From contig CAZRVU010000002.1 of assembly GCA_964603615.1 (NCBI GenBank), positions 9,677 to 73,676 on the forward strand: a DNA stretch of 64,000 nucleotides, read 5' to 3'. This document shows positions 5,179 to 63,027 of the stretch, in pieces; positions within the stretch are counted from its first letter, which is position 1; every line of letters begins with the position of its first letter. A program made the translations under genes and the position numbers. Below the pieces are notes generated by a model. It was not told the DNA's origin, did no database searches, and saw only the letters and a list, made by a program, of their open reading frames with translations. This stretch comes from an uncultured Desulfovibrionaceae bacterium. Its GTDB lineage: Bacteria; Bacillota; Dethiobacteria; DTU022; UBA8154.

Positions 5179-5356
5179 TGATTCTACTGCATAAACTCTA
5201 TTTGCCAGGCATTCGCTGCAATCAGCATCCCTTCGACTGACTATTTTTTGCCCGGGCCTAATTGAATGTCCTCTTCAAAAGGCCCTAAAATGGCGTCCTG
5301 CCATTTTAGCTTCAAAATTGTGGCGTCTTCATGGGCTGATTTTTACAGCTACCGCC
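5179..5356 (+). repeat. MITE-like repeat, copy A (3'-truncated, ~178 bp)
   Basis: Begins TGATTCTACTGC and is near-identical to the copies at 51181, 52357 and 53294 through ...GATTTTTACAGCTACCGCC. It lacks the last ~50 bp and ends within 8 bp of the spoIIR stop codon. Confidence 0.75.
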
Positions 5357-6287
5357 GCCTCTTTTTCGTTATAACATCCCACAACCAGAAGCGCCACTTG
5401 TATGACGGTTTTTCCTGCTCGACGAGATCAACACTGTCTTTTTTTTGCGCTTTTTTACTGTTTTTTTTACCTGCGGCAGCAGGAGCATAATCTGCTCCAG
5501 TGTTTTTCCCACCGGCAGAACCGCCCGTAAGCAAGCCCTCCTGCTTGCCATCTTCCTGTTTTTGTTCTTCATCTCCCGTAACCAAAGGGGAAATAGAACT
5601 AAAACACAACGGGGGGAAAAGCACACACCACCAGTTTTCCCCGCGTCCCTCCCCCATGATCAGATAAAGAGCTGTGTACTCGCCTGCCGGGAAGAGCCTC
5701 CCTTCATAGCAACGGGCCGGGAAAACATCGCGGCTTAACGAGGCCTCTACATCGTATGCACATCCATAATCCCGCATGATTTCCCGGGCCACCTCTTCCA
5801 GCGCGACCCTATTTTCTGTTAAAAAGTGGGCTAATTCGTCACTGTTCCGGCAATTGCTCCATTCCTGCTGGTAATGAACAAGCACTCTTTGCGCCACTAA
5901 ATTTTTAATTTCTTGATCCCGCGGGGAGTTACTGTGAGCACGAACATGAAAACGAAGCATATCTTGCGTTTGGATCTGCTGGGCGTGCGAATAACCTGCA
6001 CACCCTAAATTGCTAGCGTTTGGCCCGCTAGCGCTTTGTTTAGAACAACAATCCGGAGCGCCTTCCATACGGTTGCCGGGCAGACTTCTTTCCATCCCCC
6101 GGGGCACCTGTAACAGGTCAACAGTAAATTGTTGCCCCGTTAAAAATGTTAACCTGCCCGGTAGGCAAAAGGTTTTTAGGGCAACAAGAACAAGAACAAG
6201 CATAAAAACAGTAAACGCCCATCCTTTATTTCTCCAGATAGAAAGCAAATATCTTGCTTTTGCCAATAATTGCTTATAAATACGCAT
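5349..6287 (-). CDS. spoIIR: Stage II sporulation protein R (start codon uncertain; true start likely internal near 6203)
   Basis: LRFHVRAHSNSPRD, FPAGEYTALYLIMGEGRGENWWCVLFPPLCF and a K/E-rich tail ending WRFWLWDVI match B. subtilis SpoIIR (RILANSDSDQD, ANWWCVLFPPLCF, tail ending HFFLFDWI). Confidence 0.85.
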   Translation of the reverse strand: MRIYKQLLAKARYLLSIWRNKGWAFTVFMLVLVLVALKTFCLPGRLTFLTGQQFTVDLLQVPRGMERSLPGNRMEGAPDCCSKQSASGPNASNLGCAGYSHAQQIQTQDMLRFHVRAHSNSPRDQEIKNLVAQRVLVHYQQEWSNCRNSDELAHFLTENRVALEEVAREIMRDYGCAYDVEASLSRDVFPARCYEGRLFPAGEYTALYLIMGEGRGENWWCVLFPPLCFSSISPLVTGDEEQKQEDGKQEGLLTGGSAGGKNTGADYAPAAAGKKNSKKAQKKDSVDLVEQEKPSYKWRFWLWDVITKKRRR

Positions 6288-44838: not shown

Positions 44839-44877
44839 TGATTCTACTGCAGAATGTAGCTTTTGCAGTGGAATCAT
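44839..44877 (+). repeat. Mini-copy of the MITE-like element (TIR pair only)
   Basis: TGATTCTACTGCAGAATGTAGCTTTTGCAGTGGAATCAT keeps only the two terminal inverted repeats and a short linker; it forms a 12-13 bp hairpin, and its terminal TCA (TGA on the minus strand) is the rplI stop codon. Confidence 0.65.
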
Positions 44878-48149: not shown

Positions 48150-49247
48150 TTAGACTTTGAAACGAAAATAGATCACATCCCCGTCCTGAATCTGATAGTC
48201 TCTTCCTTCTAAACGCAAAATTCCTTTCTCTTTTGCAGCTACCACCGATCCAGACTGCAGCAGTTCCTCCCAGTTAATCACCTCCGCGGCGATGAACCCT
48301 CTTTCCATATCACTGTGCACCTCTCTGGCACCGCGGCGCGCCGGCGTTCCCCTGGGAACTGCCCAGGCCCGGGCTTCCTGACCCTTGATGGTAAAATAAG
48401 TAATCAATTGCAAAAAATCATACCCTATTTTAACCAACCTGTTTAAACTTGTTTCCTCCAGTCCATATTCTCGAAGGAATAATACCTTGTCCTCTTCATT
48501 CATTTCCTCCAGTTCGCCCTCCAAGGATGCACAAATACTAATAACTGGTGCTCCCTCTGCCTCCGCCAGCCTGCGTACCGTTTTAACCGGCACTGGTTCC
48601 TCCAAAAAGAGATCTCCCTCATCGATATTGACGACATAAACCACCGGTTTGGATGTTAGCAGTTGCAGCTCCTCCAGTATCTTTTTTTCTTCTGCTTCGA
48701 TCTCCAAACTGCGTGCGGTCTGCCCCTTGCTTAGATGTGCATAAACTTTTTCTAAAAGTTCTTTCTGCGCAAAGGCCTCCTTAGTAGCACCTTTAACGCT
48801 CCGTTGTGCCTTCTCCAGCCTTTTTTCGAGAACAGCAAGATCGGAGAGAATTAGCTCCAGTTCTACAATTTCAATGTCTTGCCGGGGTTCCGGGACCCCG
48901 ACTAAATGCGGAACGTCTGGCGCGTTGAAACCCCTCACAACATGCAGAAGTAGATCCATCTCCCGGATATGAGCTAAGAAACGATTGCCCAGACCTTCCC
49001 CTTGACTGGCGCCCTTTATCAAACCGGCAATATCGACGATAGACAAGGTTACCGGGGTTACTTCCGTGGAAGAAGCTAGGGCCGCAACCCTTAAAAGACG
49101 TTCATCTTTAACCGGAACAACTGCTCTATTCGGTTCAACTGTAGCAAAAGGATATTTTGCTCTCTCCACCGGTAGGCTGGAAAGAGCAGTAAATATCGTT
49201 GATTTACCAACATTGGGTAAACCAACCAATCCACATTTAAAACCCAT
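48150..49247 (-). CDS. ychF: Redox-regulated ATPase YchF (Obg-family GTPase)
   Basis: MGFKCGLVGLPNVGKSTIFTAL (G1), DIAGLIKGASQGEGLGNRFLAHIRE (G3) and a C-terminal TGS domain. Confidence 0.95.
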   Translation of the reverse strand: MGFKCGLVGLPNVGKSTIFTALSSLPVERAKYPFATVEPNRAVVPVKDERLLRVAALASSTEVTPVTLSIVDIAGLIKGASQGEGLGNRFLAHIREMDLLLHVVRGFNAPDVPHLVGVPEPRQDIEIVELELILSDLAVLEKRLEKAQRSVKGATKEAFAQKELLEKVYAHLSKGQTARSLEIEAEEKKILEELQLLTSKPVVYVVNIDEGDLFLEEPVPVKTVRRLAEAEGAPVISICASLEGELEEMNEEDKVLFLREYGLEETSLNRLVKIGYDFLQLITYFTIKGQEARAWAVPRGTPARRGAREVHSDMERGFIAAEVINWEELLQSGSVVAAKEKGILRLEGRDYQIQDGDVIYFRFKV

Positions 49248-49262: not shown

Positions 49263-49454
49263 TTAACAACTTTCTCCGGGTTCTTCGACGATCTCCTTTA
49301 CTTTACGTTCGAACTTTTGTCGTGACAAAAGCACGCTCCGACCGCATTTTAAACACTTGATACGAAAATCCATACCAATACGTATAATGCGCCAAAGTTC
49401 CCCGCCACATGGATGATTTTTCCGCATACGCACTATTTGACCTAACTTATACAT
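49263..49454 (-). CDS. DUF951 family small protein (YyzM-like)
   Basis: 63 aa with HPCGGELWRIIRIGMDFRIKCLKCGRSVLLSRQKFERKVK, matching the DUF951 CxxC zinc-ribbon pattern; adjacent to ychF as in Bacillus. Confidence 0.75.
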   Translation of the reverse strand: MYKLGQIVRMRKNHPCGGELWRIIRIGMDFRIKCLKCGRSVLLSRQKFERKVKEIVEEPGESC

Positions 49455-49534
49455 ACTTTCATCCCCTGAAAGCTTCCCTAATCATAATACTACGCTCAAC
49501 GGTCTAACTGCAAGCTATCTTTAGAAACTATTTA

Positions 49535-51148
49535 GGGCTTTCTGCACAACCTGTCATTTTTAACAAACTAAGCTGCAGCAGGTAAAACCCGGCTTGCCCT
49601 TGGCAAAAATAATGCCTTGAAAACGTAAAAAACGCTCTTTGAAAAAAAGACAAAAAGAAGCCTAAGTAAATAGGCAAGATTCATCACAATGAGGTTAATA
49701 GCAATCACCGCTTCGCTGGTTTCCTGCAGCTTTGTTTTAACTAAGTTCAGCCCATACTTCCTTTTCCCTTCGCCGAACTTACCTTCAACCCAGTTGCGAT
49801 CGAGTGCATCCTCGTGGGCCTGTTTTCTAGCGTTGGGATCTGGGTTTTTCGGTGGCCGGCCCAGCCTTGGCCCGCTGAGGCGGATACCGCGTTTAGTGCA
49901 GTAACGAATGTTGTCACGCGTACGGTAAATCTTATCGGCATGAACTGATACCGGATAGAAACCATGGCGGAATCTGTATCTTTCAACCGTTTCCATGAGG
50001 GTGACCCCTTCATGGAAGTTATCCCAGGAGAGCTTCTCCAGGTAGGCCAAACCGTCTACGATGCTAATGGCCAGCTTGGCACCAAATTCTACGTTTGTCC
50101 GGGCCTTGCCCCGTACAATCGGCCTCACATGAGGTTGGCTGATGCTCACGATACGGTCTTTGATGTGATGGGTCTGATGATCGTACATGTACTTTTGTTG
50201 TTGATAAAGTTTTTGGATGGTCTTGAGTTCTTTAGACTGCTTGGGGGTAAGGGGGCTTTCAAGATGCTGCCCTTCCAGTTTGGCGATACTTTTTAGGTTG
50301 CGATACAGATAAGCAAGCTGTTTTTTGATTGCTCTTCGTAGTTGTTTTTTACGCGGCTTGCGCATCTTGGCTATCTTTAGATATTCTTTCCTGGCAATCT
50401 GGCGATAGGTACGTGGCTTTTTAATCCTACCTTGCAGCGGCAGGTAGAGGGTATCGATGTGCTCTTCGGTTTTTTCCCGTGCTTCGTTTAAGAGGCCAAG
50501 ATCAGTGGGGTAGCGGATATCAGCCGGAACACAGGTGGCATCCATGATCAGCTTGCCTTTGTTTTCTGTAGTTTTAGCAGGGTTCTTCGGTTCTTTGCTT
50601 GTGGCCAAAGGAGGGTCATCATCGTCTTTTTTATCCTTTGCACAGATGGTTTCGTTGATCGTGTTGAGTTGGTCTACGCTAAAGCGCTGGCGAAAGCGGG
50701 CCATCAGTGATGGGTCGAAGAGCTTTTCGTTTGTGTATTCTTTGAAACCGAGGAAGTATTGCAGGTAGGGGTTCTCCCGGATCTGCTCGACTGTTTCTTC
50801 ATCGGAAAGGCCTAAGGTCTCCTTGATGATTAAAGCACCTAGGGCTACCCTGGCCGGTTTTGCTACATTGCCGGTATTGCTGGGAAAAAGATCTGCATAG
50901 CTGTCTTCAATTTCGTCCCAGGGGATCATTTTAGCTTTGATCACCCAGCGGTTATTGGCTGAAAGGGCACCGCTGAAGGGCAGGATGAAATCATCAATGG
51001 TGAGCTGGTTGTCTTTTTTTCGATACATTTTTGTCACCTCATGTGCAAGGTTTTGGAGGGCTTGTGATTGTTTTTCTTGCACTTATTATACCATAAATGT
51101 GGGGTAAATGCAGTAATTATCGGGATCTGTGGGTTGTGCAGGAAGCCC
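49535..51148 (-). mobile_element. Intact insertion sequence (IS1182/IS5-like) with 17-bp terminal inverted repeats
   Basis: Left end GGGCTTTCTGCACAACC (49535-49551) and right end GGTTGTGCAGGAAGCCC (51132-51148), a 16/17 inverted match. Both flanks read (C)TATTTA, a probable 6-7 bp target-site duplication. Carries a single transposase gene. Confidence 0.8.
49568..51082 (-). CDS. IS1182/IS5-family DDE transposase
   Basis: 504 aa; N-terminal InsH/DUF772-like region (LGLSDEETVEQIRENPYLQYFLGF), a basic linker, and a C-terminal DDE domain. Confidence 0.8.
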   Translation of the reverse strand: MQEKQSQALQNLAHEVTKMYRKKDNQLTIDDFILPFSGALSANNRWVIKAKMIPWDEIEDSYADLFPSNTGNVAKPARVALGALIIKETLGLSDEETVEQIRENPYLQYFLGFKEYTNEKLFDPSLMARFRQRFSVDQLNTINETICAKDKKDDDDPPLATSKEPKNPAKTTENKGKLIMDATCVPADIRYPTDLGLLNEAREKTEEHIDTLYLPLQGRIKKPRTYRQIARKEYLKIAKMRKPRKKQLRRAIKKQLAYLYRNLKSIAKLEGQHLESPLTPKQSKELKTIQKLYQQQKYMYDHQTHHIKDRIVSISQPHVRPIVRGKARTNVEFGAKLAISIVDGLAYLEKLSWDNFHEGVTLMETVERYRFRHGFYPVSVHADKIYRTRDNIRYCTKRGIRLSGPRLGRPPKNPDPNARKQAHEDALDRNWVEGKFGEGKRKYGLNLVKTKLQETSEAVIAINLIVMNLAYLLRLLFVFFSKSVFYVFKALFLPRASRVLPAAA

Positions 51149-51180
<32 letters not shown>

Positions 51181-51409
51181 TGATTCTACTGCCTAAATTT
51201 TATTTGCCAGGCATTCGCTAAAATCGGCAGCCATGCGACTGGCAATTTTTCACCCGGGCCAATTGAACGTCCGCTTCAAAAGGCCCTAAAAATGTCGTCC
51301 GGCCATTTTTGCTGCAAAATTGTGGCGTCTTCATGGGCTAATTTTTACAGCTTCGCCCCGGGCAAATTGCGCTTTATGCAGCAGAATGTAATTTTTGCAG
51401 TGGAATCAT
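51181..51409 (+). repeat. MITE-like repeat, copy B (full length, ~229 bp)
   Basis: TGATTCTACTGC...GCAGTGGAATCAT; the termini are imperfect 13-bp inverted repeats, and the copy ends on the adk stop codon. Confidence 0.75.
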
Positions 51410-52062
51410 TAATTAACTATTTTTTTTAAAAGGTCGGCAATATCCGTAAATACATCATTAATCGGGCGCGAACCATCCACACTATAATAAAGATCCTTCT
51501 GTTTATAATAATCAATAATGGGCATGGTTTGCTTACAATAAACAGACAGTCTTTCTTTTACAGCATCAACATTGTCATCGCTTCTTTGATATAATTCACC
51601 GCTGCAATGATCACAAATATTACGCACTTTGGGAGGGTTAAATTTTAAATGATACGATGCACCGCAATTACGGCAGACTCTTCTTCCTGTTAAACGATCC
51701 GTCAACTCTTCTTCCAAAACATCTATATTTACTACTGCATATATTTTTAATTGGAGCTCATCTAAAATTTCATCAAGAGCCTGGGCCTGTTCTACTGTCC
51801 GGGGAAACCCATCCAAAAGAACTCCGTTACTGCTACCATGTTTTGCCAGGTAATCTTTAACTAAAGAAATCACCACTTCATCCGGGACTAGTTTACCTTT
51901 ATAAATATATTCTTTTGCTTTATTGCCTATTTCCGTTCCCTCTTTAACAATATTGCGGAAAATTTCGCCGCAGGAAACATGAGACAACGCAAAACCCTTG
52001 GCTAATTTTTCCGCCTGTGTACCTTTACCGGCACCAGGGGCGCCCATCAAAACAATAAACAT
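51409..52062 (-). CDS. adk: Adenylate kinase (zinc-lid type)
   Basis: MFIVLMGAPGAGKGTQAEK (P-loop), LLDGFPRTVEQAQAL, a zinc lid CRNCG...CDHCSG and LYQRSDDN; about 55% identical by eye to B. subtilis Adk. AT-rich codon usage relative to neighbours. Confidence 0.9.
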   Translation of the reverse strand: MFIVLMGAPGAGKGTQAEKLAKGFALSHVSCGEIFRNIVKEGTEIGNKAKEYIYKGKLVPDEVVISLVKDYLAKHGSSNGVLLDGFPRTVEQAQALDEILDELQLKIYAVVNIDVLEEELTDRLTGRRVCRNCGASYHLKFNPPKVRNICDHCSGELYQRSDDNVDAVKERLSVYCKQTMPIIDYYKQKDLYYSVDGSRPINDVFTDIADLLKKIVN

Positions 52063-52356
52063 AAGAAAACCTCCCTTTTAGTAAAAAGATTCTGATAACA
52101 ATGCTTGGATTTTCATAAGTTTCACTAATAATTGAATATAAAAAATTACTTATTCTTTCAGCTACTTCTGGTCAAAACACGCTTAAATGTAATTATTTCT
52201 CCGTAATTATTCAAAATCCTGCCTTACTAACACATATATTTCTAACTTTGAGCCATAATGAATAAAAGCACAATAAAAACTTAATTTTAAATAATTTAAA
52301 ACCGGGCCCTAACTAGAACTGGATCTATTGTTTCTCATCTTTTTATTGCCTATTCA

Positions 52357-52585
52357 TGATTCTACTGCCTAAATTCTATTTGCCAGGCATTCGCTGAAAC
52401 CAGCAGCCCTTCGACTGGCAATTTTTCACCCGGGCCAATTGAACGTCCTCTTCAAAAGGCCCTAAAAATGGCGTCCGGCGATTTTTGCTGCAAAATTGTG
52501 GCGTCTTCATGTGCTGATTTTTACAGCTCCCGCCCGGGCAAATTGCGCTTTATACAGCAGAATGTAATTTTTGCAGTGGAATCAT
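52357..52585 (+). repeat. MITE-like repeat, copy C (full length)
   Basis: Same element as copy B; about 90% identical across 229 bp; ends 22 bp upstream of the yyaC start. Confidence 0.75.
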
Positions 52586-52607: not shown

Positions 52608-53201
52608 ATGCACCCTTCGACAACAAAAAACGCTGAAAATTTTTACTTCCCCTTGCCAGCAACGATCTTTCCCCATACAAAGGGAGCCTTGACTACTTTT
52701 ACACAAGTCCTGGGCTCTTTGTTGACTAAACTGCAAAATTACCACACACAACTAATCATTCTTTGTATTGGCAGCGATCGTTCCACCGGTGATTCCCTCG
52801 GGCCCCTGGTCGGTAGCGTTTTACAAGAGTTCCCTTTACACAACATTACTGTACTGGGCACACTTTCCCAACCTGTCCATGCTTTAAACCTTCCCGATAC
52901 CCGCGAATTATTATCAAACCATTATAAAACCGCTGCCATTCTTGCTATTGATGCTTGTTTGGGTCAAAAAAGCAAGGTGGGTTGCCTTGAAATTGGTAAA
53001 GGAAGCATCTACCCTGGCGCGGCTGTAAAAAAGTCTATTCCTCCCATTGGCGATCTCTTCATTACCGGTATCGTCAACGTAGGGGGTTATATGGAGCCAC
53101 TAATTTTACAAAACACACGCCTTGGAATCGTTTTTCCCCTGGCTAAATTTATTGGTTTGGGCGTTTATAAAGCCATCTGCGCGACAGAATGGCTTCTTTA
53201 A
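52608..53201 (+). CDS. yyaC: Sporulation protein YyaC (GPR-like spore protease family)
   Basis: LIILCIGSDRSTGDSLGPLVG, HALNLPDT, AIDACLG and ITGIVNVGGYMEPLILQNTRL align with B. subtilis YyaC (VVVCIGTDRSTGDALGPLVG...). Confidence 0.85.
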   Translation: MHPSTTKNAENFYFPLPATIFPHTKGALTTFTQVLGSLLTKLQNYHTQLIILCIGSDRSTGDSLGPLVGSVLQEFPLHNITVLGTLSQPVHALNLPDTRELLSNHYKTAAILAIDACLGQKSKVGCLEIGKGSIYPGAAVKKSIPPIGDLFITGIVNVGGYMEPLILQNTRLGIVFPLAKFIGLGVYKAICATEWLL

Positions 53202-53293: not shown

Positions 53294-53522
53294 TGATTCT
53301 ACTGCCTAAACTTTATTTGCCAGGCGTTCGCTGAAACCAGCAGCCCTTCGACTGACAATTTTTCGCCCGGGCCAATTGAACATCCTCTTCAAAAGACCCT
53401 AAAATGGCGTCCGGCCATTTTTGCTACAAAATTGTGGCGTCTTCATGGGCTGATTTTTACAGCTACCGCCCCGGCAAATTTCGTTTTATGCAGCAGAATG
53501 TAATTTTTATAGTGGAGCCATT
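53294..53522 (+). repeat. MITE-like repeat, copy D (3' TIR degenerate)
   Basis: 5' TIR TGATTCTACTGC intact and internal sequence conserved; the 3' end reads TATAGTGGAGCCATTT. Confidence 0.7.
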
Positions 53523-53664: not shown

Positions 53665-54540
53665 TTACTTAAGCAGCAACGTCAATAATCTTTCCAAATC
53701 TTCTTCACCGTAAAAAGATATTTCCACCTTTCCTTTACGTCTTCCTGCTTTAATCTTAACCTTAGTACCATAAATATCCCTCATTTTTTCTTCATATTCT
53801 TTGATCTGTTGCTGCGATTCTTGCTTTTCAGCGCTAGTTTCCCCCTGTAATGCCTCTTTTTCCTGTCTATTGATTTGTCCCTTCACCAGTTTTTCTACTT
53901 GCCTGGCGCTAAGCTTTTCTTCTATTACTTTTAAGGCAATCCTCTTCTGTTCCTCGCCGTTGCTCAAAGCCAGTAAGGGCCGGGCCTGCCCTGCCGTAAT
54001 AGAGCCATCCGCAAGATAGCTTTGCACTTCATCTTCCAGGGCTAACAAACGAACGGTGTTAGCGATCGTCGAGCGACTCCGCCCTAGTTTTTGCGCTAAA
54101 TCATCTTGTAGGTATTCAAATTCCTCCAATAATTTTTTATAAGATATTGCTTCTTCAATGGGATTCAAATTTTCCCTTTGCAAATTTTCAACCAGTGCGA
54201 TTTCTACCGACTGCCGGGAGCTATATTCTTTAAGGATAGCCGGTATTTTATCTAAACCGGCCATTAAAGCAGCGCGATATCTTCTTTCCCCGGTTACCAG
54301 ATAATAGTATCCCTCTTTTTTTTGTAATATTACTGGTTGTAGCACCCCATATTCTTTGATTGTATCAGATAGTTCCTTTAATTTTTCTTCATTAAAATTT
54401 TTTCTAGGTTGGTGCGGGTTGGGTTTTACCAAATTTAAAGCAATCTCTACCACACCTTTTTCAGCAGGGATCTTCTCTTCATTAATTTCAGGTATTAGTG
54501 CCCCCAGACCTTTACCCAATCCAAGTTTTTGCTTACTCAT
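53665..54540 (-). CDS. parB: Chromosome partitioning protein ParB (Spo0J)
   Basis: ParB box (GERRYRAALMAGL), an HTH (SRSTIANTVRLL) and a C-terminal dimerisation domain; overlaps parA by 4 bp. Confidence 0.9.
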   Translation of the reverse strand: MSKQKLGLGKGLGALIPEINEEKIPAEKGVVEIALNLVKPNPHQPRKNFNEEKLKELSDTIKEYGVLQPVILQKKEGYYYLVTGERRYRAALMAGLDKIPAILKEYSSRQSVEIALVENLQRENLNPIEEAISYKKLLEEFEYLQDDLAQKLGRSRSTIANTVRLLALEDEVQSYLADGSITAGQARPLLALSNGEEQKRIALKVIEEKLSARQVEKLVKGQINRQEKEALQGETSAEKQESQQQIKEYEEKMRDIYGTKVKIKAGRRKGKVEISFYGEEDLERLLTLLLK

Positions 54541-55295
54541 CTTCTAGCAACCTCCTCTGCCATAATTTTATAGACCTCCGCCCCTTTGCTGCGCGGATCA
54601 TATTCAATAATTGGCTTACCATGGCTGGGGGCTTCACTCAGCCTGACGTTCCTGGGTATAACAGCATCAAAGACAATTGCTCCAAAATAATTTCTTACTT
54701 CTTCCGCAACCTGAGCAGCTAAATTAGTCCGGCTGTCATACATTGTCAGAAGAACACCACCAATTTTTAGCTTACTGTTAAGATGCTTTTTAACCAGATT
54801 AATCGTTTTTACTAGTTGGCCTAATCCTTCCAGCGCATAATACTCACATTGAATCGGAACTAGTACCGTATCGGCTGCAGTCAATGCATTTAAGGTAAGC
54901 AACCCCAAAGAAGGTGGGCAATCAATAATAATATATTGAAATTTATCTTTTAGGGGCCTGAGCATCCGGCGCAATCTCATTTCACGCGAAATTGTCGGGA
55001 CTAATTCGATTTCAGCCCCGGCTAATTGTATAGTAGCCGGAATAACAAAAAGGTTATCCTGTTTTGTAGAATAGATTACTTTTTCTAACGGTATTTCATT
55101 AATTAAAGCATCATATATACATGTTTTAACCTTTTCTTTGTCCAAGCCAATCCCGCTAGTAGCATTTCCTTGAGGATCAATATCTAACAACAACACTTTG
55201 TTACCCAATTCGGCTAAACAGGCGGCCAAGTTAACGGCTGTAGTTGTTTTTCCTACCCCACCCTTTTGGTTGGCAACTGCTATAATTCCTTGCAC
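54537..55295 (-). CDS. parA: Chromosome partitioning ATPase ParA (Soj)
   Basis: Deviant Walker A KGGVGKTTTAVNLAA and the downstream ParA motifs (DCPPSLGLLTLNAL). Confidence 0.95.
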   Translation of the reverse strand: MQGIIAVANQKGGVGKTTTAVNLAACLAELGNKVLLLDIDPQGNATSGIGLDKEKVKTCIYDALINEIPLEKVIYSTKQDNLFVIPATIQLAGAEIELVPTISREMRLRRMLRPLKDKFQYIIIDCPPSLGLLTLNALTAADTVLVPIQCEYYALEGLGQLVKTINLVKKHLNSKLKIGGVLLTMYDSRTNLAAQVAEEVRNYFGAIVFDAVIPRNVRLSEAPSHGKPIIEYDPRSKGAEVYKIMAEEVARR

Positions 55296-55478
55296 CTCTC
55301 CACCCCATTATTATCCCGATTGGAATATTTTGAGACACCTTCTATATTCGTTAAACGTTAAAATAGTTCCTTCTACAAATTAACATTGCCGGGTTATTCT
55401 ATTCCCTTAAAAACAAAAAGCTGCTTATTCGAAACAGCAGCGTTATCTTTTTATAATCTTCTTCTTTTATAATGGCCT

Positions 55479-56312
55479 TTATATTTGATCTTTAGGCATG
55501 CGAATTCTTATTTCCCAAAAATTTTCATGTTCTATCTCCTCCACGATAGGCTTTAAACCGGCATTTCGAATTATACCTAATGCTTGTCTGATCGTGTTTA
55601 AAAATATCCTTAGATCTTTAATAACTACCTTTCTTTGCCTCTTGAGGCCGCCCCTCTTTTTTTCGTTTTGTTTAAATTTTTTAATTATTTCTTCGGTTTC
55701 CTTAACAGTTAAATCCATTTCTAGTATAATATTTACTACTTCCATCTGTTTTTCCACTGAGTCAAGCTTTAATAGTGCACGTGCATGACGTTCGGTGAGT
55801 TTTCCCGCAAGCAATATTTCATTAATTTTTGCAGGCAGCTTCAATAACCTCATTTTATTAGCAATCGTAGATTGACTTTTACCTAATCTTTGTGCCAGGA
55901 CCTCTTGCGTTAGATCGAATTCTTCCATTAGCCGCTTGTATCCTTTTGCCTCTTCCATATAATTTAAATTTTCTCTTTGCAAATTTTCGATCAGGGCTAC
56001 TGCTGCCAATGAACTACCGCTATAATCCCTCACAATCGCAGGTATTTCCGACCAATTAAGCAGTTTACATGCCAGGAAACGTCTTTCACCGGCAACGATA
56101 CGATAACCGTTCTGCTCTGTTGTAAGGAGTATTGGTTGCAGCAAACCATATGTTTTAATCGACTGCGCCAGCTCTTTTATCTTTTCATCTTCAATGTTTA
56201 TTCTTGGTTGATAAGGATTATTCGTTATAAGTTCCGTTTTTACATTACGCACATCTTCCCTCACTTTACTATTACGTTCTAAAGGTATCTTTTTACTTTT
56301 TTCTGACCACAT
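55479..56312 (-). CDS. ParB-family paralog (Noc-like nucleoid occlusion protein)
   Basis: ParB box (AGERRFLACKLL) and an HTH (SQSTIANKMRLL) but a divergent C-terminus; position upstream of parAB matches noc. Start set at MWSEK with an RBS; the ORF opens at 56360. Confidence 0.75.
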   Translation of the reverse strand: MWSEKSKKIPLERNSKVREDVRNVKTELITNNPYQPRINIEDEKIKELAQSIKTYGLLQPILLTTEQNGYRIVAGERRFLACKLLNWSEIPAIVRDYSGSSLAAVALIENLQRENLNYMEEAKGYKRLMEEFDLTQEVLAQRLGKSQSTIANKMRLLKLPAKINEILLAGKLTERHARALLKLDSVEKQMEVVNIILEMDLTVKETEEIIKKFKQNEKKRGGLKRQRKVVIKDLRIFLNTIRQALGIIRNAGLKPIVEEIEHENFWEIRIRMPKDQI

Positions 56313-56397
56313 TTCATCACCCCGGTATACATTTGATTCTAGTAGCCTTTTGTAGCGCAATATTTCTTTCTTAATTTATGAATAGGCCATCTTTGTG

Positions 56398-57174
56398 CTA
56401 ATTTTTGTATTTGTTGTAATTATTCGACATAGTGATTATTTTTCCTGCCCCTTGCTCAGATATTTTATTATACCAGGGCCTTTTTTGTGGTATGCCGTCT
56501 CTGCGGGGGAATTTTTCTTCTGCTTTATTCACTTTTTTAATGATGAAGATCATCCTATCTTTTCCACAATCCGGCAACCTGTAAGACTTAACGTCCACAA
56601 GTTTGCCGCCACAACGCAGTAATATATCCCTGGCCCGGCCTAAATCTTGTAAACCCTTTGGCCCCTGCCAGGACCAAAATTCACCCCCCACCCCTACAAG
56701 GGGCAAGGCTAATTCCAAAATAACAGCCAGCGGTGCTACAGCGCGCGCCACAACCCAGGGAAATTTTTCCCTCATCTCTCCCCGCGCTAAATATTCAGCC
56801 CTTTGCTGCCATAAAGTAACCTCTTGCAGTTTTAAATCCCGCACAACTTTTTTTAAAAATAAAACTTTTTTCCCTGCCGCCTCCACTAAAAACAGTTTTA
56901 TCCACGGCAATAATATTTTTATAGGTATCCCGGGGAAACCTGCGCCACTTCCTAAATCTAATAATTTTTCCCCGTAAGGCTCGCTCCCCAGCCCGTACAA
57001 AGAATCATAAAAATGTTCTTCGATGATTGCCGCTTGCTCTATAATACGTGTCAGGTTGTATTTTTTATTCTCTTGCTGCAAAATTTTTATGTAGCGCTGG
57101 AAAAGAATTACTTGATTATCGTCTAAATCAATACCATATTTTGCAAACACGTCTTTAATTGCTTTAATCTCCAT
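56398..57174 (-). CDS. rsmG: 16S rRNA (guanine527-N7)-methyltransferase RsmG (GidB)
   Basis: SAM-binding LLDLGSGAGFPGIPIKIL and the RsmG fold; 258 aa. Confidence 0.9.
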   Translation of the reverse strand: MEIKAIKDVFAKYGIDLDDNQVILFQRYIKILQQENKKYNLTRIIEQAAIIEEHFYDSLYGLGSEPYGEKLLDLGSGAGFPGIPIKILLPWIKLFLVEAAGKKVLFLKKVVRDLKLQEVTLWQQRAEYLARGEMREKFPWVVARAVAPLAVILELALPLVGVGGEFWSWQGPKGLQDLGRARDILLRCGGKLVDVKSYRLPDCGKDRMIFIIKKVNKAEEKFPRRDGIPQKRPWYNKISEQGAGKIITMSNNYNKYKN

Positions 57175-57283
57175 TTTATTTAATCTAACCCTGTTATTTT
57201 ATTCTTAACTACCCCGCGTATAAAGGATAGGACTGTTCAAGACTAAAGCAGCTCTTTCTTTTTTTCCTATATTTATTTGTAAG

Positions 57284-57330
57284 CAAATTCCGTTTTATGC
57301 ATCAGAATGTAATTTTTGCAGTGGAAACAT
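57284..57330 (+). repeat. MITE-like repeat, 3'-terminal fragment (copy F)
   Basis: AAATTCCGTTTTATGCATCAGAATGTAATTTTTGCAGTGGAAACAT matches the last ~47 bp of copies B and C; lies 5 bp from the mnmE stop, in the mnmE-rsmG gap. Confidence 0.65.
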
Positions 57331-57335
57331 TTTTA

Positions 57336-58763
57336 TTATTTACCGATACAAAACTTTTGAAAAACATTTTCTAGCACATCCTCACCGACCTCTTGCCCGA
57401 GCAGCTCCTCTAAATGCTTTTTTGCCCGTCGCAAATCAATGCCGATCAAATCTAATGGAATATTACTATTAAAAGCTTCCCTTGCTTCCTCTAAATTTAC
57501 CTTAGCTTTTTTTAGCAGTTCTTCTTGTCTGGCTTCCATAATAAAGGCACTCTCTTCAGCAACGATCATTCCTGAATATACCATCTCACCAATAGCTTCC
57601 TCCAACTTACTAAGCCCGGCCCCGTTTTCTAGTGATGTTTCGAGCACCAACCTTCCTGGAAACGCCTCCTTTACCTCTTGCGGCGATATCCTCTGCTTTA
57701 AATCTATTTTATTAAGAATAATAATCAGATTCGCCCCCGGACTGCCCTCTTGTTCAATATTATGATAAATCCAGCGATCATCCGTTGAGATCCCCCTTGA
57801 TGCATCTAATATCAATAAAATCAGATCTGCTTCCGCCAGGACCCTTCTAGATAATTCCATGCCTATTTTTTCTACTTCGCCCCCGTTGAGATGTAAACCT
57901 GCCGTATCAATTATTTTTAAAGGAACACCTTGAACATTTATATATTCCATTAATAGATCACGCGTTGTCCCTGGTATATCTGTGACAATAGCGCGTTCCT
58001 CCCTTAGAAAATAATTATACAGGGAAGACTTACCAACATTGGGACGGCCAGCGATCACTGTTTTAACTCCCTCTTGCAATATTTTTCCCTGAAATCTTTT
58101 TTGCAGCAGCAAGTTAATATTTGATAACATATTTTCTATTTTTAAAGCACTATCCCTGGCCCCTTCCAGCTCTCTTTCTAGATCAGGATCATCGTAGGCA
58201 AAGTCTACCTCCACTTCAATCTGCCCCAGAAGGGAAATTAGTTCAGCGCGCAGCGCTTTAATTTCATCTGAAAGTGACCCTTTGAGTCCTAATAGCGCAC
58301 CATGCAAAGCTTTATCTGTCTTGGCTTTAATCAAAGTTAAAACGCTTTCAGCCTGCACCAAATCTAACCTTCCGTTCAGATAGGCTCTTTTCGTAAATTC
58401 CCCCGGTTCAGCTAAGCGGGCACCTTTATCTAGCACAGTCCTCAATATATTTTTTAAAACAACAGCACCTCCATGCGCGTTGATCTCTACAACATCTTCA
58501 CAAGTATATGAATGGGGGCCGGGCATAAAACTCAAGAGTACTTCATCGATTTCATTCCCCTGCCCGTCTAGAACATAGCCGTAATAAAGCTTTCGCGCTC
58601 TTAGGAAAAAGCTTTTATTAGATGTTTCTTTACGTTTGTCTTTACGAACAAATATTTTTAAGGAAATATTTAAAGCATCTTTACCGCTAAGGCGTACAAT
58701 ACCAATGCCCCCTTCACCGGGGGGTGTGGAAATAGCTGCAATTGTTTCTTCGGGGTCATTCAT
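57336..58763 (-). CDS. mnmE: tRNA modification GTPase MnmE (TrmE)
   Basis: MNDPEETIAAISTPPGEGGIGIVRLSG N-domain, G-domain (GRPNVGKSSL, DTAG) and the C-terminal CIGK. Start at the ATG at 58763 with RBS AGGTGA; the ORF opens at 58781 with GTG. Confidence 0.95.
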   Translation of the reverse strand: MNDPEETIAAISTPPGEGGIGIVRLSGKDALNISLKIFVRKDKRKETSNKSFFLRARKLYYGYVLDGQGNEIDEVLLSFMPGPHSYTCEDVVEINAHGGAVVLKNILRTVLDKGARLAEPGEFTKRAYLNGRLDLVQAESVLTLIKAKTDKALHGALLGLKGSLSDEIKALRAELISLLGQIEVEVDFAYDDPDLERELEGARDSALKIENMLSNINLLLQKRFQGKILQEGVKTVIAGRPNVGKSSLYNYFLREERAIVTDIPGTTRDLLMEYINVQGVPLKIIDTAGLHLNGGEVEKIGMELSRRVLAEADLILLILDASRGISTDDRWIYHNIEQEGSPGANLIIILNKIDLKQRISPQEVKEAFPGRLVLETSLENGAGLSKLEEAIGEMVYSGMIVAEESAFIMEARQEELLKKAKVNLEEAREAFNSNIPLDLIGIDLRRAKKHLEELLGQEVGEDVLENVFQKFCIGK

Positions 58764-58883
58764 CTGCTCTTTCACCTGCACAGACCTTTATTCATATTCT
58801 TTATCTCACACTCTTAAAAAATAAGGAGTTCATTAGAACTCCCTCTTTTTACCACTACTGTTTCATTTCCCTGGAAATATTTT

Positions 58884-59513
58884 TTAGCGTGGTGAAATAA
58901 CAATTTTACGGTAAGGTTCTTCCCCCTGACTAGAGGTAACTACATCCCGATTATTTTTCAAAGCCAAATGAATAATTCTCCTTTCCTGCGGATTCATTGG
59001 CTCTAGGGCTACTTCTTTTCTAGTCCTTAAAGCTTTTAAGGCTAAATTTCTAGCCAAATTTTCTAATGTTTTTTTTCGCTTATAGCGGTAATTTTCTATG
59101 TCGAGAATAATCCTTTGTTTTTGTGCTGCAAATTGTCTATATAAGACAACATTAGCCAGGTATTGGATGGCATTTAAGGTGTTGCCCCGTTTACCAATTA
59201 AAATACCTAAATTTTCTCCTGTAATTTCATAATGCAGGTTTTCTTCATCATTTTCTTCAGAAGTAATCTTAATCGTTCCCTCTACTCCCATAATATTAAC
59301 TATATTTTCCAGAAACTCCTGAATGTATTCATCAACCTCTTTGAGTACGGTCAACCTTAATTTGGCCTGTTTAGAGCTGATAAATTTTAACAGTCCTTGC
59401 GCCGGTTCGCTCAAAATCTCTATTTGAACATTTTCTTTTTTTACACCTAATATTTTTAAACCTTCTTCCAGCGCATCCTCAATTGTCTTAGCGCTAACCT
59501 CAATTGTATTCAT
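58884..59513 (-). CDS. jag: Jag protein (KH + R3H RNA-binding, SpoIIIJ-associated)
   Basis: 209 aa; Jag_N, KH (GKRGNTLNAIQYL) and R3H (ERRIIHLALKNNRDVVTSSQGEEPYRKIVI); overlaps the yidC stop. Confidence 0.85.
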   Translation of the reverse strand: MNTIEVSAKTIEDALEEGLKILGVKKENVQIEILSEPAQGLLKFISSKQAKLRLTVLKEVDEYIQEFLENIVNIMGVEGTIKITSEENDEENLHYEITGENLGILIGKRGNTLNAIQYLANVVLYRQFAAQKQRIILDIENYRYKRKKTLENLARNLALKALRTRKEVALEPMNPQERRIIHLALKNNRDVVTSSQGEEPYRKIVISPR

Positions 59514-60337
59514 CTTTTCTTTTTGGCCCCTTTCTTCTTACCTTTAGCCACCTTTTTTTTAATTTTGGGGGCATTTTTGTCCGTCTTTAACGTTTTTTTA
59601 TCTTTCCCTGTTTCAATTTTACTGAGGCCTTTAACTTTTTCTGGTTCTTTTATTACAGATTGTTTAACTTGGGCCATCTTTTTCTCCTGCATCTTTGGTT
59701 CGTTTTTATCCTTTTCCCCTTTACCAAAAATAAATAATTGATTACCTATCGAAAATATCGAATTTGTAAACCAATAAAGAACCAGTCCCGCGGGAAATTT
59801 AATACTAATGGCTGCAATCATCACCGGGAAAACATATAGCATTGTCTTTTGACGGGGATCTGTAATAACCATGCGCTGATGAAAAAAAGTTGCAGCGGCA
59901 GCTAAAATAGGCATAACATAAAAAGGATCTTTTTCGGTTAAATCTAGCCAAAGAAAATTTGGATTAAAAGTTTTTCCTATTGCCTCAGCAATTTGAGCCG
60001 GTTCCCGCAGAAGAGTAAAGACGGCAATCATAATTGGAAACTGAATTAAAAGAGGTAGACAACCCCCTAAAGGATTTACTTTATTCTCTCGCATATATTC
60101 CATTGTAACTCTGTTATAAGCTTCCTTATCGTTCTTGTATTTTTCTTGTAGTTTTTTTAGTTCCGGCTGAATATCTTGCATTTTTTTTGAAGATTCTAGC
60201 TGTTTTTTAGTCAAAGGAAACATAATAATATTAACGAGAATAGTAAGCATAATAATAGCTAAACCATAACTTTCCCCTGCTATATTATATAAATAACTTA
60301 ATATTATATTTATATACCCACTAAGGGCCTGTATCAT
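59510..60337 (-). CDS. yidC: Membrane protein insertase YidC/SpoIIIJ
   Basis: FPLTKKQLESSKKMQDIQPELKKLQEKYK, NPLGGCLPLLIQFPI and a Lys-rich C-terminal tail; 275 aa. Confidence 0.9.
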   Translation of the reverse strand: MIQALSGYINIILSYLYNIAGESYGLAIIMLTILVNIIMFPLTKKQLESSKKMQDIQPELKKLQEKYKNDKEAYNRVTMEYMRENKVNPLGGCLPLLIQFPIMIAVFTLLREPAQIAEAIGKTFNPNFLWLDLTEKDPFYVMPILAAAATFFHQRMVITDPRQKTMLYVFPVMIAAISIKFPAGLVLYWFTNSIFSIGNQLFIFGKGEKDKNEPKMQEKKMAQVKQSVIKEPEKVKGLSKIETGKDKKTLKTDKNAPKIKKKVAKGKKKGAKKKR

Positions 60338-60374
60338 GCCGATTCCTCCTTTTTAGCCTTCCATCCCGTATTTT

Positions 60375-60584
60375 TTAAGGTAAAGGATCGTAGCCACCTG
60401 CGTTAAAAGGATGGCAACGTAATATTCTGTTTATACTGAGCAAAGCCCCTTTAATAACTCCATATTTAGCGATAGCCTCAAAACTATAGCGGGAACATGA
60501 TGGATAAAAACGGCAATGTGGAGGAAACAACGGAGAAATCGCCCTCATATAAAAATTGATGATCCCCAGCAACAGATACCTCAT
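60375..60584 (-). CDS. yidD: Membrane protein insertion efficiency factor YidD
   Basis: 69 aa with [19 protein letters not shown]...[17 protein letters not shown], the DUF37/YidD signature. Confidence 0.85.
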
Positions 60585-60735
60585 TAAAAAACATCCTCCT
60601 ACACTTTGACCAAACCTCTTAGCTTACAAAATACAACACCAAGGTTTTCTTATATTTACTTTATTCTTAATATAATAGCTAAAGTATATTGTGTACAAAA
60701 ATTTTAACATTTTTTAACGCTTTGTTTTTAGGTAA

Positions 60736-61113
60736 TTATGATCGTAGCAGTTTCCCTTTTAACAACAAACTTTGTAGATCATGAAGTATTTCCCAATACG
60801 AAAGCTGATCTGCACCTTTTCTGGCAATAATCACTAAATCAAAACCAGTTTTTAAATGTTGCTGTAAACTACGCATTGCTTCACGATAAATTCTTTTTAG
60901 CCGGTGACGTATAACACTTTTCCCCACTTTTTTACTAACAACGATACCCAAGCGATTAATTGTTTTCCTATTCCTTTTAAAGTAAAGAACCGTTTTGGCC
61001 GTAGCTCGCGATCTACCCTTCCTGTAAATATCCTGAAACTGATAATTTTTACTCAATCTTTCTATCTTTTGTTCTTGAGCTTTTTTTTTAATACTAGTAT
61101 TTTCTTCCATCAT
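60736..61113 (-). CDS. rnpA: Ribonuclease P protein component
   Basis: Basic 125-aa protein; VVSKKVGKSVIRHRLKRIYREAMR is the RnpA RNR-like motif; immediately follows rpmH. Confidence 0.85.
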   Translation of the reverse strand: MMEENTSIKKKAQEQKIERLSKNYQFQDIYRKGRSRATAKTVLYFKRNRKTINRLGIVVSKKVGKSVIRHRLKRIYREAMRSLQQHLKTGFDLVIIARKGADQLSYWEILHDLQSLLLKGKLLRS

Positions 61114-61114
61114 C

Positions 61115-61249
61115 CTAAGCTGACAGCCTGTTTTTTTTCTTTTTTCTTCTCCTTTGTAAAATTCTTCTACCTCCTGGTGTGGACATTCTTTTCATAAAAC
61201 CATGCACTCTTTTTCGCTTTCTTACCTTCGGTTGATATGTTCTTTTCAT
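61115..61249 (-). CDS. rpmH: 50S ribosomal protein L34
   Basis: Translates to [44 protein letters not shown] (44 aa); the ORF is below the 60-aa track cutoff. Confidence 0.85.
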
Positions 61250-61668
61250 CATGCAAAATCCTTTCTTTTAGGTAAATTAGAGTTACATTTACCCCTTCAA
61301 ACTCTGAAACTCATTATAACGCATCTATTCTAGACATGCAACACAGTGCAGCAGCATTTTTATGTAGTTATTAACATCTTGCGCAACACATTTTTTATTA
61401 ATAGTTGCCACTATTTTCCCCTGTGTTCAACCTTAAACTTTTTTTATATAATTAAGCTCCTTTACAATCTGCTCTATCCTTAAAATTCTGACAAATTGAA
61501 AATATTCCACGACTTAGCTTTTATTTAATCCTCACTTTAGATATTGCTGTGAAAGATGGCATCTGTTATTATATATGTTGCAGGTATTCGCACTTTTAGG
61601 TTATCCACAGCAAATGTGGATAACCTAAAATAACTGTGGATAATTATTTTTTGATGGAGGTTCAATTT
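61250..61668. promoter_or_regulatory. oriC part 1: DnaA-box cluster and dnaA promoter region
   Basis: Three consensus DnaA boxes, TTATCCACA/TGTGGATAA, at about 61591-61599, 61606-61614 and 61635-61643, within AT-rich sequence upstream of dnaA. Confidence 0.7.
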
Positions 61669-63027
61669 ATGGAAAACCGTTTACCTACCATCTGGTATTC
61701 AGTTTTAGCTGAAATGGAAAAAACATTAAGCAAACCAAGTTTTGAAACCTGGTTAAAAACAACCAAACTGATTGACTTACAAAATGATAAAATTATTGTA
61801 GAAGTACCAAATGAATTTACCCGCGACTGGTTAAAAAACCACTACAATAAATTTTTAAGTAATGCCCTCGATAAAATTAGCGATAACCGGTATTACATAC
61901 ATTTTGTTACACCTCAAAATATCTCTTCTAAGAATAGTGGATTTTCTTCTGCTACTTTACCGCTGCAAAAAACTGAAAATAATATGGATAACGCTCTATC
62001 TTTAACTTGTAAATGGCTCAATCCAAAATATACTTTTAGCAGTTTTGTAATTGGAAATGGTAACCGTCTAGCACATGCTGCTTCCCTGGCCGTCGCAGAA
62101 GCACCCTCCAGGGCTTATAATCCCCTTTTCATCTATGGTGGAGTGGGACTAGGTAAAACCCACCTGATGCATGCCGTTGGCCACTATGTTGTCTCTCAAA
62201 ATACAAGTGAAAAAGTAAAATATCTCTCTTCTGAAAAATTTACAAATCAGTTTATCAATGCTATACGGGATAATAAAACAGAATTATTTCGTAATAAATA
62301 CCGTAATGTAGATGTGCTCCTGATCGATGATATCCAGTTTTTAGCAGGAAAAGAACAGACACAAGAAGAATTTTTTCATACTTTTAATGCCCTTCATGAA
62401 AATAACAAACAAATTGTCGTTTCTAGTGACCGCCCGCCCAGGGATATTCCTACGTTAGAAGATCGACTACGTTCACGTTTTGAATGGGGTTTAATAACAG
62501 ATATTCAGGCTCCCGATCTGGAAACTAGAATTGCCATCCTCCGTAAAAAAAGTTCTCAAGAAAGAATCATACTAAGCGATGATGTCCTTTTATTTATCGC
62601 CCAAAAAATTAAAAACAATATCAGAGAATTGGAAGGAGCTTTAATCCGCATTATTGCCTTTGCCTCTTTGGAGGATCGCAAGATCGACTTAGCTCTATCA
62701 GAAGAAGCACTGAAAGACTTTCTTAGTCCCCAACAAAGAAATTTAAACTCAGAAAAAATCATCGCTGTTACGGCTTCTTATTACAAAATATCGGTTAAAG
62801 ATATTAAATCACAAAGGAGAACTCAAAACATTACCTTACCGAGACAGGTTGCTATGTATCTTTGCCGCGAATTAACTGATCTTTCCCTGCCAAAAATAGG
62901 AGAAGAATTTGGCGGAAAGGATCATACTACTGTTATTCATGCCCATCGTAAGATAACTTCACATCTAACCAAAAATAATACGCTTTTGCGTCAATTGAAT
63001 GAAATTAAAAATCTTTTAAATTATTAG
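61669..63027 (+). CDS. dnaA: Chromosomal replication initiator DnaA
   Basis: [30 protein letters not shown]..., AAA+ ([17 protein letters not shown]) and the C-terminal HTH ([20 protein letters not shown]) are near-identical in motifs to B. subtilis DnaA. RBS GGAGG 8 nt upstream; the ORF opens at 61636. Confidence 0.97.

Follow-up and report, generated by a model that had tools for sequence, protein, structure and literature searches.

Known bacterial MITEs include the Correia elements of Neisseria, RUP of Streptococcus pneumoniae and ERIC/IRU of enterobacteria. MITE-flanked composites are known as well, among them integron mobilization units and the MITE-bracketed class 1 integrons of Acinetobacter, in which one duplication flanks the unit as a whole and which are found at variable loci. 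The 64,000-nt stretch of DNA analysed here, referred to as the window, contains an adenylate kinase gene (adk) between two direct copies of a MITE-like repeat. We consider it likely that this adk was inherited vertically in the slot typical of its lineage, that the MITEs arrived later and independently, and that adk underwent faster, AT-biased evolution on this branch.

In its canonical position adk is part of the spc operon, with the order rplO-secY-adk-map-infA as in Bacillus subtilis (PMC8046335), and Brandis 2021 (PMC8046335) reconstructed secY-adk-map as the order in the ancestral Bacilli and Proteobacteria. The window Adk belongs to the same enzyme family, in its long form with a Cys4 zinc lid, but its gene is located between yyaC and DUF951-ychF, about 10 kb from dnaA, and this placement is clade-wide. 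As the initial annotation had pointed out, the gene is thus found outside the canonical arrangement; secY and map are not its neighbours.

Loss of the canonical copy, which had been suggested for this genome, appears to be lineage-wide. In the proteome table of the cultured relative Dethiobacter alkaliphilus AHT1 (PMC10376724, supplementary file 3) the relevant accession numbers run from S5 (..6295), L30 (..6294) and L15 (..6292) through SecY (..6290), Map (..6289), a KOW protein (..6287) and IF-1 (..6285) to L36 (..6283), S13 (..6280) and an ECF ATPase (..6271), the gene order being read from this numbering, which in RefSeq follows the canonical cluster, and not from coordinates. Since the numbers of SecY and Map are consecutive, with none free for an adk between them, the spc-operon adk appears to be missing in the lineage. 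One adenylate kinase is listed in the same table, ..7377, between YkuS (..7374) and S6 (..7384); it is an abundant protein, detected with 66.5% coverage and high intensity (PMC10376724). This neighbourhood is the origin-proximal one also observed in two of the relatives described below (L008 and L069). By parsimony, the origin-proximal gene is presumably the sole adk in the window's genome.

The adk gene and its locus in the window and in relatives

The window adk (51409-52062, minus strand) is a complete gene for a zinc-lid adenylate kinase of 217 aa near oriC between repeat copies B and C, in agreement with the initial annotation. Its product matches the NCBIfam equivalog NF001380 over the full length with 302.4 bits (cut-off 251) and TIGR01351 with 260.6 bits (cut-off 168), and the Pfam scores are 183.8 for ADK and 67.6 for ADK_lid. 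The lid contains the Cys4 pattern CxxC-x16-CxxC, and inspection of the sequence together with an alignment of 118 homologues revealed that the P-loop GxPGxGKGT, the GFPR motif and the catalytic arginines (FR, GRR, QRSDD, KER) are kept. The solved structures that match best are Firmicutes-type adenylate kinases, including reconstructed ancestral enzymes (5G3Y, 280 bits) and Bacillus-type ones. A strong ribosome-binding site (Shine-Dalgarno, AAGGGAGG) is located 5′ of the adk ATG. By these matches the product is a long zinc-lid adenylate kinase and a predicted ATP:AMP phosphotransferase. The deviation noticed earlier in the NMP-binding motif is present: it reads HVSCGEIFR, with Cys31 at the position where 118 of 118 other homologues have Thr. 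In a second sample (L070, 99.35% identical DNA) the Adk is identical over the 133 N-terminal residues covered and repeat copies C and D are present, so that neither the arrangement nor the unusual residues are an assembly artefact.

The order of genes and elements in this region is LonC, rplI, ssb, rpsF, AI-2E, ychF, DUF951, an IS5-family element, a (TTA)n microsatellite, MITE copy B and adk, followed by a spacer, MITE copy C, yyaC, MITE copy D, parB, parA, noc, rsmG, mnmE, jag, yidC, rnpA and dnaA (61636-63027); the eight genes from parB to rnpA thus separate the yyaC-adk pair from dnaA. The conserved divergent neighbour of adk, yyaC (52608-53201, plus strand; spore protease YyaC, DUF1256), was assigned by its TIGR02841 match of 177 bits and by synteny. 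On the downstream side, the conserved neighbours DUF951 (49263-49454, minus strand) and ychF (48150-49247, minus strand) were identified by profile matches and by synteny with the relatives. MITE B, the microsatellite and the IS5 element now lie between them and adk, and the distance amounts to about 1.9 kb (MITE B plus IS5), vs. 38-97 bp in the loci of four relatives; in two others (L008 and L069) mscS intervenes.

The adk gene has a GC content of 37.9% and a GC3 of 0.303, the fourth lowest among 56 ORFs (z about -2.1; window mean GC3 0.45). The low GC3 reported before therefore stands, whereas the description of the neighbours as roughly 50% GC was overstated: the values are 47.6% for ychF, 47.5% for the IS5 transposase gene, 44.4% for yyaC, 40.8% for parA and 40.0% for parB. 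Moreover, GC3 is below that of most ORFs in adk but similarly low in the genes from parB to dnaA, with 0.27-0.42 in all of them and 0.27-0.36 in seven of nine. In the relatives, too, parA, parB and noc are lower than ychF in composition.

The region upstream of adk is AT-rich, as had been described. It corresponds to the native divergent yyaC/adk spacer (52063-52356, 294 bp, 27.6% GC), recognized by alignment with the spacers of relatives, with which it has a conserved block in common (about 50-70 nt; window about 52213-52262). In the direction of yyaC this block resembles a forespore-type promoter, ACATA-17 nt-CATAATG. When MITE C is removed, the distance from the conserved block to the yyaC ATG becomes about 110 nt, similar to that in L006. 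A search of the whole 64-kb window against Rfam matched no family, and no tRNA genes were found in it.

Among 5.8 billion proteins, the closest homologues of the window Adk belong to uncultured Bacillota and share 71-75% of its residues. Nine homologue contexts were fetched, including P0011, P0002 and P0014 (71-74%), L011 (71%), Dethiobacter, Dethiobacteria and P0079. Identity to the window Adk is 71-75% for L002-L007 and L011, 67% for the Dethiobacter sp. MAG L008, 62% for the Dethiobacteria MAG L009 and 59% for the sister-clade sequence P0079/L069. A scan of genome contigs with Adk peptide patterns, which proved too query-specific, recovered a single close relative, L011; the host itself lies outside the species representatives.

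In all nine related contexts adk adjoins a divergent yyaC, and the genes after it are (mscS)-DUF951-ychF-AI-2E-rpsF-ssb-rpsR-rplI-lon; in most of them parB, parA and noc are located beyond yyaC. The repeat was not found at any of the relatives' adk loci examined. Because these relatives carry adk at the same locus without repeats, a situation that the initial annotation had itself named as speaking for an ancestral copy, acquisition is not supported. Neither acquisition nor a recent relocation of the gene agrees with the shared locus, the homologous spacer and a synonymous divergence (dS) that is not raised. Judged from the synteny of the relatives and the SecY-Map junction of D. alkaliphilus, the departure of adk from the spc operon is old and lineage-wide.

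The flanking genes show L004 and L006 to be the nearest relatives of the host, at identities of 86/82% for ychF, 80/77% for AI-2E, 82/76% for rplI, 82/80% for ssb and 92/84% for DUF951, respectively. The phylogenetic check proposed earlier gave the same picture: in Adk trees, which were built by neighbour-joining only, the window protein joins the L004/L006 group in 89 of 100 bootstraps, against acquisition. The discordance expected of a horizontally acquired gene is not seen in these trees. The adk at 51409-52062 is the ancestral syntenic copy, and it is fast-evolving in this species.

The MITE family and the IS5-family element

Six pieces of the repeat, more than had been listed before, were found in the 64-kb window, all in one orientation (plus strand). 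Repeat comparison revealed three copies around adk and yyaC: copy B (51181-51408, 228 nt), with its right end abutting the adk stop codon (51409-51411), copy C (52357-52584, 228 nt), located in the leader of yyaC with 23 nt between it and the ATG, and copy D (53294-53521), located where yyaC and parB converge, between their 3′ ends. Copy A (5179-5356) is truncated at its 3′ end and overlaps the stop codon of a spoIIR-like ORF, a mini copy of 39 nt (44839-44876) consists of the two ends only, and a right-end fragment (57283-57331) lies 4 nt from the mnmE stop codon. The claim that B and C are direct repeats was borne out by 213 identical positions of 228 (93%). A 21-nt core of the element occurs four times in the window, with none expected from shuffles. 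Right ends are located 0-5 nt from a stop codon in four of the six pieces.

The element has terminal inverted repeats TGATTCTACTGC and GCAGTGGAATCA that match at 11 of 12 positions, and it pairs end to end as a hairpin (-40 kcal/mol as DNA, -74 to -78 as RNA, z about -3). It is non-coding, with no Pfam match for the ORFs overlapping it. Target duplications, the length of which is 4-7 bp depending on the element ends chosen, are seen at copy C (TTCA, or ATTCAT with the ends drawn 1 nt further in), copy D (TTTA or ATTTAT) and the mini copy (TTCTG or ATTCTGT). The flanks of copy B showed no recognisable duplication; on the left this copy adjoins a (TTA)9.7 microsatellite (51152-51180). At the mini copy, rplI now takes its stop codon from the terminal TCA of the element, which reads TGA on the minus strand, and removal of the element with one duplication restores the rplI end '...GAA TAA'.

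In 1.03 Mb of fetched loci the element was not found, save for fragments from the same species. A metagenome scan with the invariant 21-mer gave eight matches, all of them a fortuitous agreement over 22 nt with part of a coding gene from an unrelated organism, so that no copy was found outside this species, and comparison with plasmid records and Rfam families gave no match and no similarity, respectively. A short non-coding sequence with terminal inverted repeats, per-copy duplications and multiple copies, which the relatives lack at their orthologous sites, is a MITE, and the family is apparently undescribed. Because a separate target duplication accompanies copy C within a native, conserved spacer, the copies must have been inserted independently.

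Each MITE left end contains a weak, outward-directed promoter-like sequence, CTGGCA-16-TAGAAT. A scan for promoters and terminators over 49.2-53.7 kb gave 11 and 6, respectively, vs. shuffled expectations of 8.8 and 6.4, and hence no enrichment; because such sites are not enriched over shuffles, we regard the promoter-like sequence as a mere lead.

Between DUF951 and the microsatellite lies an insertion sequence of 1616 bp (49534-51149, minus strand). It is a member of the IS5 family, with a DDE transposase that matches NF033578 with 440 bits (cut-off 275), 19-nt terminal inverted repeats, a 4-bp duplication (ATTT) and a presence that varies between strains. The site is empty in the conspecific strain L071 (99.7% identical), where it reads GAAACT-ATTT-ATTATT and where the microsatellite is shared. 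An exact look-up of the transposase with two alternative start codons found no record. In a search for an autonomous partner of the MITE, the transposase gene of this element (49568-51082) was the sole one found nearby, and its ends (AGGGCTTTCTGCACAACC…) are unlike and unrelated to those of the MITE (TGATTCTACTGC…); the IS5 element is thus not the parent of the MITE.

The initial annotation read the arrangement as a composite mobile unit, MITE-adk-MITE, which had brought in or moved a second adk. Two direct, 93% identical MITEs do bracket adk and its promoter region, and the gene has a low GC3 and lies outside the spc operon. Against this, relatives without repeats keep the locus, the internal spacer is homologous to the spacers of the relatives, the Adk phylogeny is host-like, and no matching transposase was found, the IS5 inverted repeats being unrelated. 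Copy C has a duplication of its own, and on the outside B (…TATT) and C (TTCA…) are flanked by different sequences, which excludes transposition of B-adk-C as one unit. We give hardly any credence to a composite unit. With insertions that are dense and independent, the two-repeat bracket is a coincidence and does not constitute a transposable unit.

The sequence of events that we favour, vertical inheritance with later insertions, would then be as follows. In a broad, Dethiobacter-related clade of Bacillota adk would have moved away from the secY-adk-map position at an early date. The 228-nt MITE would have inserted repeatedly and independently, and in this species alone, into short origin-proximal intergenic regions, one copy landing after the adk stop codon, one in the yyaC leader and one downstream of yyaC. 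The IS5 element would subsequently have entered between adk and DUF951 in some strains. As to possible effects on expression, MITE C would put a 228-nt hairpin into the yyaC leader.

Evolution of adk in this species

The host Adk is 73 and 70.5% identical to those of L004 and L006, which share 89% with each other. In the neighbour-joining tree its node-to-tip distance is 0.232 vs. 0.087-0.124 for the others, i.e., the host branch is 2-3 times longer than those of relatives. Tajima tests counted 33-36 host-unique Adk sites vs. 7-11 for L004 (p 1e-3 to 1e-5); the same tests were balanced for ychF (not significant), yyaC, rplI and DUF951. Non-synonymous divergence (dN) of adk is 0.16-0.19 for the window vs. 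0.055 between L004 and L006, about threefold higher. The adk dS, 1.06-1.73 overall, is within the range of most neighbours (window vs. L004: adk 1.06; ychF, AI-2E, yyaC and rplI 1.14-1.48; ssb and rpsF 0.62-0.74), a comparison limited by dS being near saturation. The resulting dN/dS is 0.11-0.15 vs. 0.04 between L004 and L006. The ORF is intact and adk is still under purifying selection.

Where at least 90% of the 118 homologues agree, the host Adk departs from the consensus at ten sites (P8A, T31C, D33E, A38I, M53I, G66S, R71Y, D76G, C77S and T167A), vs. none for P0002, P0014 and P0011. The window-specific changes spare the lid and are densest at residues 31-105; a search for mosaic structure inside adk gave no clean breakpoint, the changes being spread along the protein outside the lid. 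GC3 of adk is 0.13-0.17 below that of its orthologues (0.30 vs. 0.43-0.47), the largest drop among the neighbouring genes. With L003 as the outgroup, quartet sites in Adk place L004 and L006 together, apart from the window, in an 8:2:1 pattern. Neighbouring genes give a three-way split that is uninformative on the topology, and because of this the Adk pattern does not conflict with them.

An exchange of the gene in place was considered as one source of this divergence. Here the segment between B and C would have been replaced, as an allele, by recombination with an unsampled relative of lower GC that had adk at this position, with the MITE copies or the flanking genes as possible anchors for the recombination. 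The excess divergence and the GC3 drop are indeed limited to adk, with normal values for DUF951 (92%) and yyaC (78%), and the 8:2:1 quartet pattern would be in line with such an event. Nevertheless, dS of adk is not above that of its neighbours, Adk groups with L004/L006 (89/100 bootstraps), the closest match among the 5.8 billion proteins is 75% identical, and clade-invariant residues are changed that an ordinary foreign orthologue would keep. The quartet pattern is not in conflict with the three-way split of the neighbouring genes. The anomaly is confined to the B-C segment and dS is close to saturation, so we leave this replacement a small probability and regard it as very unlikely.

The rise of dN/dS from 0.04 to 0.11-0.15, the change of ten conserved sites including Thr31Cys and the lower GC3 could also reflect relaxed selection through redundancy, if another adenylate kinase were encoded elsewhere and the origin-proximal copy were drifting to AT. 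We find this unlikely. The ORF is intact, with the strong ribosome-binding site, and the P-loop, the catalytic arginines and the Cys4 lid are kept; omega is far below 1, the second strain is identical over 133 residues, and in the cultured relative just one Adk, an abundant protein encoded at the same locus, is seen.

Under vertical inheritance the low GC3 and the odd residues would come from faster, AT-biased evolution of adk, in which non-synonymous change went up about threefold and synonymous change did not. Judged from the sequences, the low GC3 and the motif deviations fit faster evolution in place better than import, and the pattern fits a gene-specific relaxation or shifted constraint combined with AT-biased mutation. 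As for what set it off, the boxing-in by MITEs might have triggered an accelerated and partly adaptive evolution of the sole, essential Adk (Cys at Thr31, R71Y), its gene being detached from DUF951-ychF and the hairpin co-transcribed. We hold this to be distinctly unlikely; if true, it would mean that MITE insertions altered the expression of, and the selection on, a core housekeeping gene.

Comparison with described systems

No general principle is changed by these results, and the points that emerge are modest. A gene with an odd GC content that lies between repeats may look captured though it is ancestral, and synteny together with per-copy duplications settles the point. A class-level lineage, Dethiobacter and its relatives, keeps adk near the replication origin and not in the stable secY-adk-map position. 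A normally slow-evolving enzyme shows a burst of change in one species. Finally, this uncultured species harbours an active MITE family, apparently undescribed, whose insertions tend to lie directly at stop codons or next to them; the stop codon itself can be provided by the TGA ends of the element.

Like Correia, RUP and ERIC/IRU, the window element is about 230 nt long and non-coding, has inverted repeats and forms a hairpin over its whole length. It shares with them short duplications, several intergenic copies by gene ends and truncated or end-only derivatives. Unlike the known MITEs, it has no similarity to an Rfam family or a plasmid record, its six pieces in the window lie in one orientation, and four of six right ends are located 0-5 nt from a stop codon. 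With the MITE-flanked composites the locus has in common two direct MITE copies around a functional gene, here adk. It differs from them in that copy C has a duplication on both its inner and its outer side, adk is syntenic in the relatives, and the spacer is native.

Position of the MITE pieces relative to gene ends

All six pieces of the 228-nt terminal-inverted-repeat element (MITE) in the window have the same orientation, and five of them lie within the 12.5 kb adjoining the origin. For four of the six, the right end is located 0-5 nt from the stop codon at which a gene on the minus strand terminates, namely rplI (piece 44839-44876), a spoIIR-like ORF (5179-5356), adk (51181-51408) and mnmE (57283-57331). 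The rplI stop codon is now the terminal TGA of its MITE piece, and the stop TAG of the spoIIR-like ORF (5349-5351) falls within the truncated MITE. This 312-AA ORF (5349-6287, minus strand) carries a SpoIIR domain in residues 108-232 only, and its C-terminal tail extends into the same MITE copy, copy A.

IS5 element and microsatellite beside MITE copy B

The presence of an IS5 element (49534-51149) differs between strains; an empty site with a single ATTT was observed in a 99.7% identical conspecific contig from another sample (L071:1-60). Between IS5 and MITE copy B, a perfect (TTA)9.7 microsatellite occupies positions 51152-51180; contig L071 ends in this microsatellite as well.

Base composition and the yyaC-adk spacer

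GC3 is about 0.27-0.36 in parB, parA, noc, mnmE, jag, yidC, rnpA and dnaA (53665-63027) and 0.34-0.58 in the genes at 1-47 kb of the window, with at least 0.42 in all but one of these. In relatives, parA, parB and noc are low too. The low GC is a regional trend towards oriC.

A conserved block of the yyaC-adk spacer (52213-52262) is common to five relatives' loci with adk beside yyaC (L003, L004, L006, L008 and L009). It resembles a promoter of the forespore sigma-F/G type that would serve yyaC. In the closest relative, L004, a different repeat family of 85-105 nt flanks yyaC on both sides (L004:1-300 and L004:973-2127), and its yyaC-adk spacer, enlarged by these repeats, reaches 1155 bp. Small repeats seem to have inserted repeatedly into the spacers around yyaC.

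Location of adk in Desulfurispora thermophila

The adk homologue of Desulfurispora thermophila (L010:5001-5645), 58% identical, immediately follows spoIIIAH of the spoIIIA operon and does not follow secY. In this further lineage of Bacillota, too, adk is not part of the spc operon.
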